Origin: Promethearchaeota archaeon
GTDB lineage: Archaea > Asgardarchaeota > Lokiarchaeia > Sigyniarchaeales > SOKP01
Assembly (NCBI GenBank): GCA_048940925.1
Contig: JBHLOC010000049.1
Coordinates: forward strand, 1-34,662
DNA: 34,662 nucleotides
Reading direction: 5' to 3'
Below are positions 17,988 through 28,499 of the stretch, piece by piece. A program made the position numbers and the translations under genes. The stretch's first letter is position 1. Each line of letters begins with the position of its first letter. The notes beneath the pieces were generated by a model that worked only from the letters and a program-made list of their open reading frames with translations, was not told the origin of the DNA and did not search any database.

Positions 17988-18600
17988 TTAAAGTTCACAA
18001 TAAGATAATACATATTTTTCAGTATATACAGATTTGAGTGTTAATTTCTTAAATCTTTTGGTTAATTCTGATTTACCTTTTTTAGTGATCAGTGAAAACT
18101 TCTTTTGCTTTTCATCAAATCTTAGTTCAAAATCACGAAAATTGACATGAAAACCTTCCCCAATTGCTTTTGAGCATGCTTCCTTGGCAGTCCAATATAT
18201 TGTTCCCAATTTATCATTTTCCGATATAAGCTCTCTTTCTGACTCAGTAAACACTTCTTTATAAAAAGATGGAGAACGTGGTTCAATTAGTTCTAGATCG
18301 ATCCCTACTTGGTTCTTACTAATGATAGCAATGGAAAACTCATGTGAGTGGCTAATTGAAAGATTTATTGGAAGTTTTTGTTTATCTTTCTTTGAATAAT
18401 AGAATGGTTTCCCCTTATTGTTCTTTTGAATTTCAATGTCAAGATAAGAGAAGTTGTTTGAGAATTGCTTTAGATAACATTCTTTTGCGGTTATAATTCC
18501 TGAGAAATATTCAAGCTTTCTTTTCTCATTTTTAAAGCGCTTAGAACCTTCAATCTCGTATTTAGTTAAATGTGTTTCCAAAAATTTATTATCTGATTGA
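17988..18600 (-). other. PKS domain: Sfp-type 4'-phosphopantetheinyl transferase
   Basis: KRKLEYFSG, NNKGKP, NLSISHS, VGIDLE, FTESE, WTAKEACSKAIGEG. Confidence 0.9.
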
Positions 18601-27600: not shown

Positions 27601-28499
27601 GAATACAAGAGAGATTTATTTTCCAATTCAATTACTTTTTGATATAAGCCAGACTTGAGAACTCCGCCTGCATCGTTAATATCTTCACATAAATACGATA
27701 ATTCTTTAACTTCAATCTCTTTAATTGCTCGGATTGATTTATTTGCTAATTTTCCAATCAGACGATAATTATATCGCGAAGATTCTAATATTAAATAAAA
27801 ATCAGTTTCTTTTATTGTCATAAGATATTCTTTAAATTCCGGACTTATGGGGCATTCAGGAAATAAATATAACTGGCTTTCTAAAACAACTCCAATTGCT
27901 CCTCCTATAAAAGCTGAACAAATGTTATATACACCAAAACCACCTTGAATCACAAAAGGAATACCAGCTTTATAAAATTCTTGAATAAGGATAAAACTAT
28001 TTTTTGTACCAACCAATCCTCCCGCCTCATTTCCTTTTACAAGAAATAGGTCTGACCATTCTGCACTTTCATAAGCTTCCTCTAGATAGCAGACTTCTGA
28101 TAATAGTAATTTTGAAGAATCTTGCATTTTCTTTATTTCTTGGATATTTGGAGAAAACGCACAAATAATAATTGGGACAATATCATTGAATTTAATTATG
28201 TCGAGAGCTTTTTGGGTATGTATTCGAATGCCCCACATATTAGCGGAAGATAAGGAATACTGGAAGGTTTCGAGAATTTTTTGGTATTGATTTGGATTTA
28301 GACCTTCAAGATCAACTAAACCAACTCCTCCTAATTGGCTTATCCTAATTGAAAGAGATGAATCAGCAATGCCTTTTGGTGAATACCCCCAGATGGGGAT
28401 TTTATTTTTAAGAACTTTTAGAATTTTTTGTTTTTTTTTCATAAGAATTAACAACTCTATTTTTAAAGGTAATTGTGAATTAGACTGGAGATATACCAT
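17988..28499 (-). CDS. Giant iterative type I PKS/FAS (Pfa/Hgl-related): ER*-ER-KS-AT-KS-ACPx3-KR-DH-PPTase; alternative start at 28442
   Basis: Motifs in order: GNEAGGL / YPIIQGPM..GNECGGH; DAACASS-HGTST-KSQIGH; GQGSQ-GHSLGE-NAFH; NAACAST-SHETY-TGHAMG; 3x DLGIDTVKQ; TGGAQGI-HGAG-SSVAG-YAFAN; LDH..PVFPG; SISHS-GIDLE-WTAKEA. Confidence 0.95.
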   Translation of the reverse strand: MVYLQSNSQLPLKIELLILMKKKQKILKVLKNKIPIWGYSPKGIADSSLSIRISQLGGVGLVDLEGLNPNQYQKILETFQYSLSSANMWGIRIHTQKALDIIKFNDIVPIIICAFSPNIQEIKKMQDSSKLLLSEVCYLEEAYESAEWSDLFLVKGNEAGGLVGTKNSFILIQEFYKAGIPFVIQGGFGVYNICSAFIGGAIGVVLESQLYLFPECPISPEFKEYLMTIKETDFYLILESSRYNYRLIGKLANKSIRAIKEIEVKELSYLCEDINDAGGVLKSGLYQKVIELENKSLLYSDPNPKHSWLPSDHGISFSNYIFNNFRTLENFLSNLPKIIQDQIENIHSFWPFVKNSEFAKKLNITYPIIQGPMANISDQLEFAKKIAENGALPILALGGLLGNEAENLLSGAVVSELSEKPYGSGIIGLEVVRSRREQHLKSISTHGPKITLVAAGTIDLGVQINKLGNIVLIHTPTLSMFKNALDKNLDFIILEGNECGGHIGMLSSFIIWERILEYLQMNKKEFKKKVNIIFAGGIINELSTAMLASMIGNHLDLINPGIQMGTAYLLSEEIVTSQALSPVYQELLLNNSSTTIIGTSVNTRARVIPSSFACEIVKKEYLRKAQGISISKRKEMFEEDNLGALRIASRAEIWNEKHVDGAESTQYIPTSRNHQLTNGVFMTGDSISLQKTIRNISQIHYDVIEEGKNSFNRMSSNVLEITSGRELMKEEIKAKKDIKYGNKVAIIGLGGIFPDAENISQFWDNIKNKKYSIMDVPIERWDPAIYFDQDHSILDKTYTKIGGFVKKYKFKSIKYRIPPKMAQRMDLVQIWAIKTAEEALIDAGYPTDGKQRLPIAVIVGNSSGGDAQRLSNKRVLFNEIKYRIHEASSQRILNPDEKENLIQFLEESIIKDIPTINEDTMPGELSNIIAGRIANVFNLTGKSMTTDAACASSLAAIDTAINGLLIKNYDTALVGGTDSSMDPQTYIKFCKIGALSQNGTYPFDARANGFVMGEGAGFIVLKRLEDAIKDKNKIYAIIIGYGGSSDGKGKGITAPNLDGQRLAIERALKSSNIKPSDIQYLECHGTSTIVGDATELNVLREVFSNRKLDQKLVIGSIKSQIGHLKSAAGIAGIIKTVLALHHKILPPSINFLTPNPSIDWDSSPFYVNTEPKNWETPDNGIRRAGVSSFGFGGTNYHIILEEFLPQLYNASSLEGIKDEIPVRAPELTSNKPPTDLCFLFSGQGSQYVGMAKELYQKYHVVKNTLDKANDICKRFADFDLLEIIFGSPNLTEEENSNKLRQTEYTQPAIYSVEMALVNLLKSKGINPGIVGGHSLGEFAALTTAGVLSFEDALKIVITRGSAMSELPTGIKCSMAAIFTSSQIVEEILDEILTEDVSISNYNSISQTVISGELSAIEEAVKIFSDKGIQALKLNVSNAFHTKFVAHAEEKLKLFLKSIEFKSPQIPIFSNVTGDVYTKSPEEIKKILLKQITSPVRWVDEIQNIYQHGGRRFLEIGPKKALYFFTKDILKQHKEIYVNFTLSPKSSEEEQILKIIEKLKSIKLKSLSRAIKISSPSFEAQLQKEIVKDSKPSVKQDVLISNKNLNKIRQLPFFNEFLEEQKELLTSIIIQGFQNFLNKHQSLLESQYSTISTNFNTSPVVITGVGIGLPGKNRKIFDDKNINDILKGINLIEPVSNEYKEQLFQKNVIRLDKSPNGNAKFVAIDDISKVIQLAGQMGEFNPTEDFHLDSKMLNALDITFQLAIGAGYEALKDAGIPLVRSNFKTSTGKILPSDWVLPESLQDETGIIFASAFPGYDNFVKEISNAGEKEFNRAFLFRVLSMGHSQFAQLIKAKGPNTSTNAACASTPQAIGIAEDWIRTGRCKRVIIITGDNVTSKNLFQWIGAGFLASGAATTKSQWEEAVLPFGEGRNGIILGAGASAFVIEQESEAKNRGVKPIVEILGTYFANSAFHGTRLDKSHISQKLTKFVTEMEKIHSITKKELANEGMFVSHETYSPARGGSAESELEALEMAFGEHAYKMMIINTKGYTGHAMGAGIEEAVAIKSMEKGIIPPIANLNKIDPDYTKFNFSKGSNERKKYALRFAAGFGSQLAMVLFRLASFDNRFSNPDYEKWLQSVGGSGKELFMDGRVLKMNTKPISTEKIPITAPTEVSHESSVPGTSDIINEIKNIIAIKTGYDPEDIEETYDLEEDLGIDTVKQAEIFGEIREKWNLEVDDSFNISDYRTIKAIVLMLNEFLNSYLISDTAIPSINDKLLETKLLEIISEKTGYDMEDIDVMFDLEEDLGIDTVKQAEIFAELRNYLKISEDTEINLVGLKNIKEIIQKIQEYLCNQNIDTNIEIVQKTTGMGTYKSINMNEVRNVIKRVIADKTGYDVIDIEDTYDLEEDLGIDTVKQAEIFGELRDYYNVGESIEINISEIRNPNEIAEFVMQYINEATTLPEKRLETHQVDVQSLERSKKEEDIYVSQVIPSQIFNLPQLEKISKYEGKKALIININSGLSNHINLHEKLLKLGLQPQVFDIIGNLNFVERLKNNQRNITLENDFNFIILVIPANKQYSSNESLAFFDSLFTIFQRLDLPSIEKIAMIASETYFGWEKGANALSASIGAFVKTLNREFQIPIKLIYSLSPDEIIKEIAIWDDVEEVAYKDGIRHTLLRTKLGDFPEQKEYLITTEDVLLVTGGAQGITFACIDKLTNYVKPELILFGLAPYDDSLHEYLSHTPEMLDKKKKEIANLLRSRQERVTPVMIEREWKNFLDKLDTLRNIERLRIKGLKVQYYAIDITDKEKMKSTFQQIQENLEKPITFIVHGAGIEESKSFLKKKLKMAHTVVDVKVGGFLNLLKYINIQNVKYIVAFSSVAGRYGNQGQIDYAFANAYLSRLAWDYSQRNIPFLSIDWTAWADIGMATRGSTLQILTQAGVVPVPAHLGVKIFSKLVLNSFKGEFIVGGDLGIFEEKLIVAKTINKLNFPMLNKMEYQPNFIIGSNSINSDFDIYLLDHQIQQKPVFPGVMVLETFAEFYNYLFEKPMTSISEINFHTPLKIPVGKSVEIELKYDNSNDEIALFSKTFPLVLKGKPLIKEHFNAKLGKPSKKFRWKKEPISEPLIPLLDKSEIYELFFHGSKFQVLKNIILLENEKIISSVDIPTTNLTENREGDNFQLDPLAIESIFQTAALFDVIINNHLSLPSKIATLDILSKEKPKYVVAKFLKKDEELSYFNCVLLSESNEIVAKVGNFEIIHSSLSSNISEKLTNYLRTLKEYYLLKNGKMSAIFHILPIEKLKLQFQSDNKFLETHLTKYEIEGSKRFKNEKRKLEYFSGIITAKECYLKQFSNNFSYLDIEIQKNNKGKPFYYSKKDKQKLPINLSISHSHEFSIAIISKNQVGIDLELIEPRSPSFYKEVFTESERELISENDKLGTIYWTAKEACSKAIGEGFHVNFRDFELRFDEKQKKFSLITKKGKSELTKRFKKLTLKSVYTEKYVLSYCEL
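18730..19530 (-). other. PKS domain: PKS-type double-hotdog dehydratase
   Basis: YLLDHQIQQKPVFPGV (His codon 19452-19454), LFFHGSKFQ, DPLAIESIFQ. Confidence 0.8.
19600..21050 (-). other. PKS domain: ketoreductase (structural plus catalytic subdomains)
   Basis: LVTGGAQGIT, VHGAG, DVKV, FSSVAGRYGNQGQIDYAFAN, IDWTAW. Confidence 0.9.
21140..21960 (-). repeat. PKS domains: three tandem ACPs with Thr at the phosphopantetheine site
   Basis: KTGY....I...(Y/F)DLEEDLGIDTVKQAEIF occurs three times; Thr ACT codons at 21852-21854, 21576-21578 and 21267-21269. Confidence 0.9.
22150..23530 (-). other. PKS domain: divergent second ketosynthase
   Basis: VVITGVGIGLPG; Cys codon at 22911-22913 in NAACAST; SHETYSPARGGSA; TKGYTGHAMGAG; FAAGFGSQ. 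Confidence 0.85.
23860..24800 (-). other. PKS domain: acyltransferase (malonyl-type motifs)
   Basis: FSGQGSQ, TQPAI, GHSLGE (Ser codon 24498-24500), TRG, NAFH, SPVRW, EIGP. Confidence 0.95.
24890..26275 (-). other. PKS domain: ketosynthase 1
   Basis: VAIIGLGGIFP; Cys codon at 25650-25652 in DAACASSL; ECHGTST; KSQIGHLKSAAG; SSFGFGGTNYH. Confidence 0.95.
26370..27430 (-). other. PKS domain: FMN-dependent enoyl reductase (FabK/PfaD-like)
   Basis: YPIIQGPM, EGNECGGHIG, FAGGI, QMGTAYL. Confidence 0.85.
27460..28420 (-). other. PKS domain: degenerate FMN TIM-barrel enoyl-reductase-like domain (FabK/PfaD/nitronate monooxygenase fold)
   Basis: LGGVG, KGNEAGGLVG (Leu at the His position), QGGFG, GAIGVVL. 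Confidence 0.7.

Follow-up and report, generated by a model that had tools for sequence, protein, structure and literature searches.

What is a single open reading frame (ORF) with the motifs of a whole fatty-acyl synthase doing in an archaeon? The question is raised by a stretch of 34,662 nucleotides (nt) from an Asgard archaeon (Promethearchaeota, Loki-type; contig JBHLOC010000049.1 of assembly GCA_048940925.1), hereafter the window, which encodes a megasynthase of up to 3503 amino acids (aa) at 17988..28499 of the minus strand. According to a 2024 preprint, archaea appear to be without a fatty acid synthase (FAS) of type I or a complete one of type II, and almost none of them has an acyl carrier protein (ACP) or an ACP synthase (bioRxiv 10.1101/2024.07.05.601840). 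We consider it likely that the ORF encodes an intact, self-contained, iterative and fully reducing type I fatty-acyl synthase, similar to FAS and polyketide synthases (PKS), which belongs to the Pfa-related secondary lipid family and is carried by an accessory island of Asgard archaea. As the copies labelled Asgard group in a single deep clade, and closed genomes are among those that carry them, Asgard fatty acid synthesis and its age become experimentally testable; the patchy, island-like spread of the synthase tempers this significance, as it points to an accessory lipid and not to an ancestral membrane pathway. Apart from evolution, the enzymology is of interest in its own right, including threonine carriers, a conserved dead enoyl reductase (ER) next to a live one, and a so-called chain-length factor (CLF) that is a complete ketosynthase (KS).

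A sequence-only reading of the window had described one uninterrupted ORF bearing all motif sets, with a first ER marked by an asterisk. Pfam and NCBIfam scans of overlapping segments gave exactly this order, ER*-ER-KS-AT-KS'-3xACP-KR-DH-Sfp-type PPTase (AT, acyltransferase; KR, ketoreductase; DH, dehydratase; PPTase, phosphopantetheinyl transferase), and neither the ORF list nor the translation contains an internal stop across the 3503 codons. The coordinates of the domains and key residues (Table 1) were confirmed by translation, and residue numbers refer to the maximal 3503-aa ORF. Alignments to solved structures showed that the catalytic residues are complete in every domain but ER*. A homologue search, which covered 5.8 billion proteins, yielded over 100 relatives of full length (3000-3900 aa), all generically annotated, and about 100 of these have the same layout; the 106 best full-length matches, of at least 2950 aa, were used for the tree and the residue alignment. 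Invariant across these 106 are the Cys-His-His triads of both KS domains, the Ser of the AT, the Tyr of the KR and the His of the DH; the Glu of the DH is conserved, and the Asp/Glu/Glu residues of the PPTase are kept in all those that possess this domain. Because about 100 independent assemblies, closed genomes included, show this layout without interruption, an assembly artefact is ruled out, and the single ORF, its order and the asterisk of its first ER all stand as first described. Mis-binning of a bacterial contig, considered because the host bin (4.8 Mb, rated 100% complete) has 8.4% contamination, was likewise ruled out, since the operon is present in many Asgard assemblies and in closed genomes, beside Asgard-typical genes. 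The true start of the megasynthase is probably 28442 and not 28499, because Met20 marks the point where all homologues begin, and the gene as called in the database (P0002) has 3484 aa; this start leaves a 37-nt spacer behind the upstream carboxyltransferase gene in place of an apparent 20-nt overlap.

In each of the three tandem ACP domains, the residue that aligns with the phosphopantetheine Ser of solved ACPs is a Thr, so that none of the carriers has the canonical Ser (D-S-L/I), their fold and family match being otherwise in order. Thr occupies this site in nearly all of about 120 relatives, archaeal and bacterial; the exceptions are P0075, with Ser in all five of its carriers, and P0038 and P0069, which mix Ser and Thr. 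The near-universal replacement points to a PPTase/carrier pair with an unusual chemistry, and the three exceptions suggest that Ser and Thr may be functionally interchangeable at the carrier site in this family. P0075, a member of an Asgard subclade lacking ER*-ER, is a natural Ser/Thr swap that could inform on PPTase specificity. The fused PPTase itself is of the Sfp type (group II), with two PF01648 stretches, an AASDHPPT_N match and the motifs GIDLE and WTAKEA. Furthermore, the only PP-binding domains and the only ACPS/PPTase domains of the host genome lie within this megasynthase; carriers and PPTase thus make up a closed pair, which supports the earlier proposal that the single chain would activate itself. 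Alternatively, the Thr carriers might be impossible to arm, the chain then being a relic or working without phosphopantetheine. In favour of this are the Thr at the attachment site of all three carriers and the outcome of a full-text literature search, in which no paper reporting phosphopantetheine on Thr, or a Thr carrier, was found; nevertheless, the conservation of Thr in nearly all relatives, together with invariant catalytic residues up to and including those of the fused PPTase, indicates purifying selection on a working enzyme, and the all-Ser and mixed relatives also speak against a relic, which we regard as very improbable.

The two ER domains differ in the features of a FabK-type, flavin mononucleotide (FMN)-dependent enoyl-ACP reductase, namely a TIM barrel, the flavin motif QGxMA and a catalytic His. 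The second domain has all of them, with the flavin motif in the form IIQGPMA and the FabK signature E-G-x-E-x-G-G-H kept as EGNECGGH, whereas ER*, when aligned to FabK, lacks QGxMA and has a Leu in the position of the His. Across the 106 relatives this position of the first domain is never His (L, M, I, K, R, W, F and others occur), and the His of the second is found in 85 of the 87 rows covered there, the two exceptions, P0091 and P0108, being only about 30% aligned over this domain. An AlphaFold model of the di-domain, built on a 38-row family alignment, reached a mean predicted local distance difference test (pLDDT) of 91.3 and a predicted template modelling (TM) score of 0.93; its halves each resemble FabK (TM 0.86-0.88), and a yeast FAS chain is among its weak structural matches. 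Since the known working form of ER domains is a dimer, and in thraustochytrids two of them pair as a heterodimer (PMC13311796), ER* is read as a retained structural partner of the sole live ER in a confidently predicted pseudo-dimer.

A similar pairing is predicted for the two KS domains, of which the first is PfaA-like and the second FabF-like. Aligned to FabF (2gqd), KS2 shows Cys, His and His all present, and thus it is not a chain-length factor in the classical, Cys-less sense; its mean column identity among the relatives, 60%, even exceeds the 49% of KS1. The domain named 'CLF' in the Type R synthases described below therefore corresponds here to a complete second KS. The complex prediction for KS1 plus KS2 scored 0.84 against 0.00 for the best control, a mark that was attained by 58 of 80 solved complexes and by 2 of 110 mismatched pairs and that, as KS dimers have already been solved, expresses likeness to the canonical interface. 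Contacts agreed by at least 88% between runs, the pLDDT of the partners was at least 81, and the predicted interface passes through the segments that flank both active-site Cys residues. Because every normally dimeric module occurs as an intrachain pair (ER/ER*, KS/KS', KR, DH and PPTase), the layout suggests that the enzyme may be a monomer built of pseudo-dimers. Some Asgard genomes encode, in addition to the megasynthase, separate ORFs of roughly 540-560 aa that share 48-51% identity with KS2 (G003:C1:136559-138196, G086:C12:45939-47576, G160:C197:4574-6202, G148:C190:9513-11069 and G092:C171:9835-11448), and in these the unusual second KS could exist as a protein of its own.

As for the remaining catalytic domains, the AT carries GHSLG, a downstream carboxylate-binding Arg and xAFH, as in malonyl-specific transferases. 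The roughly 200 residues N-terminal to the KR have no family match and are probably its structural half. The DH is of the PKS type, and no FabA-type isomerising dehydratase was found in the megasynthase (PF07977 FabA, E = 0.18), so that there is no route to cis double bonds.

From these domains and the genes around them we infer the following course. Malonyl-CoA would be supplied by the neighbouring biotin ligase, biotin carboxylase (BC), biotin carboxyl carrier protein (BCCP) and carboxyltransferase (CT). The fused PPTase would first arm the three carriers, on Thr instead of Ser, and the AT would then load malonyl units onto them. KS1 and KS2 would form an intrachain heterodimer in which both are competent, one probably serving priming and short chains and the other long-chain elongation, and the KR, the DH and the live FabK-type ER would fully reduce each beta-carbon, with ER* in a structural role. 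A long-chain acyl group, saturated and possibly 3-hydroxylated, is the most likely product, because the chain has neither an isomerising dehydratase of the FabA type nor a terminal reductase; the adjacent hydrolase may release it as the free acid or transfer it. We put forward more tentatively, as a possibility somewhat short of an even chance, that phosphopantetheine is indeed placed on Thr, that this gives some Asgard archaea ACP-dependent de novo fatty acid synthesis, and that the chain may be such a monomer of intrachain pseudo-dimers.

Several points weigh against this reading of a fully reducing fatty-acyl synthase. Besides the silence of the literature on Thr carriers, the chain could not work as proposed if its Thr were left unmodified. 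The KS complex prediction does not discriminate between a KS1:KS2 heterodimer and a dimeric enzyme in which KS1 pairs with KS1 and KS2 with KS2. The CT is closest to the propionyl/methylmalonyl-CoA type (TIGR01117, 723 bits, under the cut-off), which leaves some doubt about the extender unit. The hydrolase falls outside the recognised thioesterase families, with lipases and feruloyl esterases as its best matches. A downstream route for handling the acyl product was not apparent in the host genome, in which PlsX, PlsC and MBOAT were not found, and a PlsY-like gene was rejected as the consumer of the product, as it does not co-vary with the synthase. Finally, the putative saturated fatty acyl product is deduced from the logic of the domains, as no product is known from any relative in the family.

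Table 1. Coordinates of the megasynthase, its domains and the genes of its island within the window.
Feature	Position	Strand	Description
Megasynthase ORF	17988..28499	-	maximal 3503 aa; stop TAA 17988-17990; likely start Met20 at 28440-28442, giving 3484 aa
ER*	27510..28442	-	residues 20-330; FabK/NMO-type TIM barrel, catalytic residues lost; NMO/FabK-type match 38 bits; Leu162 at 28014-28016
ER (ER2)	26340..27452	-	residues 350-720; FabK-type FMN enoyl reductase, 53 bits; catalytic His502 at 26994-26996
KS1	24870..26276	-	residues 742-1210; PfaA-like, 421 bits to TIGR02813; Cys950, His1084, His1123
AT	23835..24794	-	residues 1236-1555; FabD-like malonyl transferase, 245 bits to TIGR00128 fabD; Ser1334 in GHSLG
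KS2 (KS')	22140..23531	-	residues 1657-2120; FabF-like, 153 bits; triad Cys1863, His2011, His2051
Three tandem ACP domains	21120..21962	-	residues 2180-2460; PP-binding, PF00550 63 bits
Carrier Thr residues	21852-21854, 21576-21578, 21267-21269	-	Thr2216, Thr2308, Thr2411; each in LGIDT, codon ACT
KR	19644..20495	-	residues 2669-2952; short-chain dehydrogenase/reductase (SDR) ketoreductase; TGGAQGIT, S...YAFAN (Tyr2889)
DH	18720..19517	-	residues 2995-3260; PKS-type double-hotdog dehydratase; His3016, Glu3182
PPTase	17991..18632	-	residues 3290-3503; Sfp/HetI-type, two halves; Asp3401, Glu3403, Glu3440
Carboxyltransferase (CT)	28480..30087	-	PccB/MmdA-type acyl-CoA carboxylase, 535 aa; directly upstream, same orientation
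Alpha/beta-hydrolase	17117..17962	-	281 aa; GESFGG, Ser-Asp-His triad; 25 nt downstream of synthase
BCCP	16669..17157	-	162 aa; start overlaps end of hydrolase gene
Biotin carboxylase (BC)	15112..16590	+	AccC-type, 492 aa; convergent with operon
Biotin-protein ligase	30503..31264	+	BirA-type, 253 aa; divergent from operon

The set of genes made up of biotin ligase, CT, synthase, hydrolase, BCCP and BC is also found in Hodarchaeota and in two Heimdall lineages; in the Desulfomonile copy, on the other hand, a TetR gene is the only neighbour. Strong CT matches and close orthologues of the hydrolase were found only in genomes with the synthase, and on the same contig, in a sample of 71 genomes of the host's own family, the CT, synthase and hydrolase being gained and lost together. 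Given this confinement, the carboxylase of this lineage belongs to the island as a dedicated component and does not serve housekeeping. The hydrolase family is restricted to Asgard archaea, and its GESFGG/Asp/His triad is invariant; the model of the protein (pLDDT 90.3) shows a fold like those of lipases, monoacylglycerol lipases and feruloyl esterases, with the PKS release hydrolases DcsB and GrgF ranking lower, and the enzyme is a plausible candidate for chain release. Rfam and tRNA scans of the window revealed no non-coding features.

Two lineages carry further genes in this neighbourhood. On a Heimdallarchaeaceae contig (L002:22564-23676, minus strand), a protein with a glycerol-3-phosphate-dehydrogenase-like N-terminal part and an octopine dehydrogenase domain is encoded three genes past the operon, and on a Hodarchaeota contig (L001:4007-5230, plus strand) a thiolase adjoins the biotin ligase; both may be lineage-specific accessories of the island.

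With regard to its relatives, all named proteins with more than about 38% identity to the synthase are from Asgard archaea, including Promethearchaeota/Lokiarchaeota, Hodarchaeota, Heimdallarchaeota, Thor- and Kariarchaeaceae, apart from a few odd third-party annotation labels, and those with 30-37% identity are from Desulfomonilaceae, Thermodesulfobacteriota, Spirochaetes and Desulfobacter. In a FastTree phylogeny of the 106 relatives, all the Asgard-labelled rows fall in one clade of 67 with a support of 100, which is divided roughly into Loki/Hod and Heimdall groups. This clade is adjoined by a 23-row clade of Desulfomonilaceae type and by unlabelled clades, and a bacterial clade without the PPTase is more distant. 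Since layout and residues are conserved in about 100 archaeal and bacterial relatives, the ER*-ER and PPTase fusions are old, conserved traits of the family common to archaea and bacteria. The sequence-only reading had called the chain an independent fusion, which does not hold, the layout being shared with Desulfomonilaceae/Thermodesulfobacteriota. The synthase was probably acquired from bacteria, with Desulfomonilaceae as the sister group, but the tree includes only the best 106 matches, many of them unlabelled, and is midpoint-rooted, and therefore does not establish the direction of transfer.

Two departures from the common layout were seen in the tree. One Asgard subclade (13 rows among P0063-P0083, with Heimdall/Kari labels) is without the fused ER*-ER and keeps the PPTase. 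The PPTase-less bacterial clade (P0081, P0085, P0086, P0098, P0111, P0117, P0120 and P0121; 3776-3937 aa; Spirochaetes, Desulfobacter) has the layout ER*-ER-KS-AT-KS-ACPn-KR-DH, in some members with a C-terminal domain of the NAD-epimerase/3-beta-HSD type, which is probably a terminal reductase giving aldehyde or alcohol products; this clade may be the 'Type S' of Shulse and Allen.

Could the synthase be the primary FAS of the organism, feeding ester membrane lipids of the bacterial/eukaryote type and thereby forming a genomic bridge across the 'lipid divide'? It has the full set of FAS chemistry and a dedicated supply of malonyl-CoA, the genome encodes no other ACP-dependent system, and in some Asgard families the synthase is common (23 of 28, 8 of 11 and 9 of 11 genomes). 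Its overall spread is unlike that of an essential enzyme, however: it was found in 52 of 301 sampled genomes of the phylum, but in only 4 of 22 in its own genus and 5 of 68 in its own family, and in none of the 76, 19 and 21 genomes of further Asgard families. Closed genomes with the synthase include that of Ca. Harpocratesius repetitus. In view of these patchy counts and of the absence of the synthase from several congeners that are 99-100% complete, the pattern fits an accessory island that has often been lost or transferred, and not an essential membrane pathway. The lipid genes of the host offer a further point on each side. A PlsY-type acyltransferase homologue is present on an archaeal contig of the genome, but it is independent of the synthase, and the genome also encodes GGGP synthase, which belongs to the archaeal pathway of ether lipids, whereas the acyltransferases PlsX, PlsC and MBOAT are missing, as noted above. 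Taken together, these observations make a primary FAS quite unlikely.

The PlsY-type homologue (117 bits) lies at G000:C67:45842-47044 on the plus strand (equal to L005:5843-7045), between the genes for TFIIB and the archaeal prolyl-tRNA synthetase. Its C-terminus is extended by about 200 aa that could not be assigned, and no acyl donor is evident for it, given the lack of PlsX and PlsC. The presence of the gene in 19 of 25 congeners does not depend on the synthase, and tandem pairs of paralogues are frequent (G322:C13, G207:C4 and G334:C104). Matches to Fe-ADH_2 (the glycerol-1-phosphate dehydrogenase family) and NAD_Gly3P_dh_N in the host genome are weak and generic, and permit no conclusion on glycerol-1-phosphate versus glycerol-3-phosphate.

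The closest catalogued system is the 'Type R' secondary-lipid synthase, which has a PPTase gene behind one pfaA homologue of the order KS-MAT-CLF-ACP(3-6)-KR (Shulse and Allen 2011, PLoS One 6:e20146, PMC3098273). Type R was described in Koribacter, Solibacter, Elusimicrobium and Roseiflexus, with an acetyl-CoA carboxylase gene linked to it in Koribacter and with an unknown product, and archaea are not mentioned (PMC3098273). Judged by architecture against this description, the core of the megasynthase matches Type R: KS-AT-KS2-3xACP-KR stands in the same order, a PPTase is its partner, and a carboxylase is linked as in Koribacter. The differences are that the PPTase is a separate downstream gene in Type R but is fused in frame here, in a genome with no stand-alone PPTase; that no ER is described in the Type R chain, whereas ER*-ER is fused to the N-terminus here; that the 'CLF' here keeps Cys, His and His alike; and that it comes from an archaeon. 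None of the named Type R genera is among the 120 best homologue matches. In the literature, no characterised Type R member and no paper on the Asgard enzyme was found, and surveys give Asgard PKS clusters only in aggregate. The statement that the order is unlike that of any characterised enzyme thus stands so far as no characterising paper was found, but the core had already been catalogued in 2011.

Compared with Pfa, the polyunsaturated fatty acid synthase of marine gammaproteobacteria, the megasynthase has a PfaA-like KS1, ACP repeats, KR and DH (421, 122 and 141 bits to TIGR02813 on segments), an ER of the FabK/PfaD TIM-barrel type, a PPTase of the Sfp/PfaE type, and tandem ACPs. It is not a PfaA equivalog, as its segments score 421, 212, 122 and 141 bits where the cut-off of TIGR02813 is 1010. 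It differs from the Pfa systems, including those of thraustochytrids, in being a single chain, in having no FabA-type DH/isomerase and no PfaB, and in having one dead ER; moreover, its second KS lies between the AT and the ACPs, and not on PfaC. As had been pointed out at the outset, functions that are split over PfaA/C/D/E in the Pfa and Hgl systems are combined here on one chain. As a functional analogue of Pfa-like systems that reduce fully, ArsA/ArsD, the type I FAS encoded in the phenolic-lipid operon of Azotobacter vinelandii ('Type P'), serves best, as it is the only Pfa-like synthase without a DH/isomerase for which a product, saturated C22-26 acyl chains, has been established (PMC3098273); this system is bacterial, consists of two proteins, and is flanked by type III PKS genes whose products take over the chain, while no type III PKS was found near the Asgard operon.

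These comparisons also bear on the possibility of a specialised product that is not a fatty acid, such as a hydroxy- or keto-lipid of very great chain length, an alkyl chain passed on to another pathway as with the phenolic lipids of ArsA/ArsD, or a methyl-branched chain derived from methylmalonyl-CoA, made by two KS programmes. The family has been catalogued as 'secondary lipid' synthases, the products of which are unknown and possibly diverse (PMC3098273), and the different C-terminal module of the outgroup clade, likely a reductase, also suggests diversity of products; the patchy distribution, the two intact KS domains and the propionyl/methylmalonyl type of the CT fit such a product too. 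Against it stand the malonyl-type motifs of the AT, the intactness of all three reducing activities, which favours complete reduction in every cycle, and the lack, in the Asgard operons compared, of any conserved neighbouring gene for tailoring, be it for a type III PKS, a methyltransferase, a glycosyltransferase or another such enzyme. We therefore hold a specialised product to be unlikely, and prefer the fully reducing fatty-acyl synthase.

Two eukaryotic enzymes complete the comparison, and the sequence-only reading had rightly set the chain apart from both. In fungal FAS the ER is an FMN TIM barrel and the PPTase is part of the synthase, which is self-activating. The megasynthase shares the ER type and the fused PPTase with it, but fungal FAS consists of two chains in a 2.6-MDa barrel, with another domain order, an AcpS-type PPTase in place of the two-halved Sfp type, MPT/AT transferases, a single Ser ACP and no second KS, and there is no evidence of common descent for the fusions. 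Animal FAS differs in its MDR-type ER and its trans PPTase. Three features that were absent from the sequence-only reading are more remarkable than those it contained, namely the archaeal host, the Thr carriers and the carboxylase operon.

Beyond the island, the window encodes a histidine kinase with three PAS domains (32016-34088, minus strand) that adjoins it and belongs to a greatly expanded family of paralogues, of which a single genome of the genus may have as many as 19 strong matches; copies are also located beside the synthase in G225:C19 and G207:C22. Searches with a flanking ORF and the PAS kinase returned paralogue families only, which support an archaeal contig and do not define the boundaries of an insertion. 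On the other side, an ABC ATPase (11898-12959, minus strand) is followed by three ORFs without a Pfam match (11057-11914, 10048-10992 and 9291-10019), and together these four genes probably encode a lineage-specific transporter. Three more ORFs without a family lie within 1156-3227 and 7019-8062 (minus strand), and the product of 10048-10992 has relatives of 28-32% identity throughout the genus.

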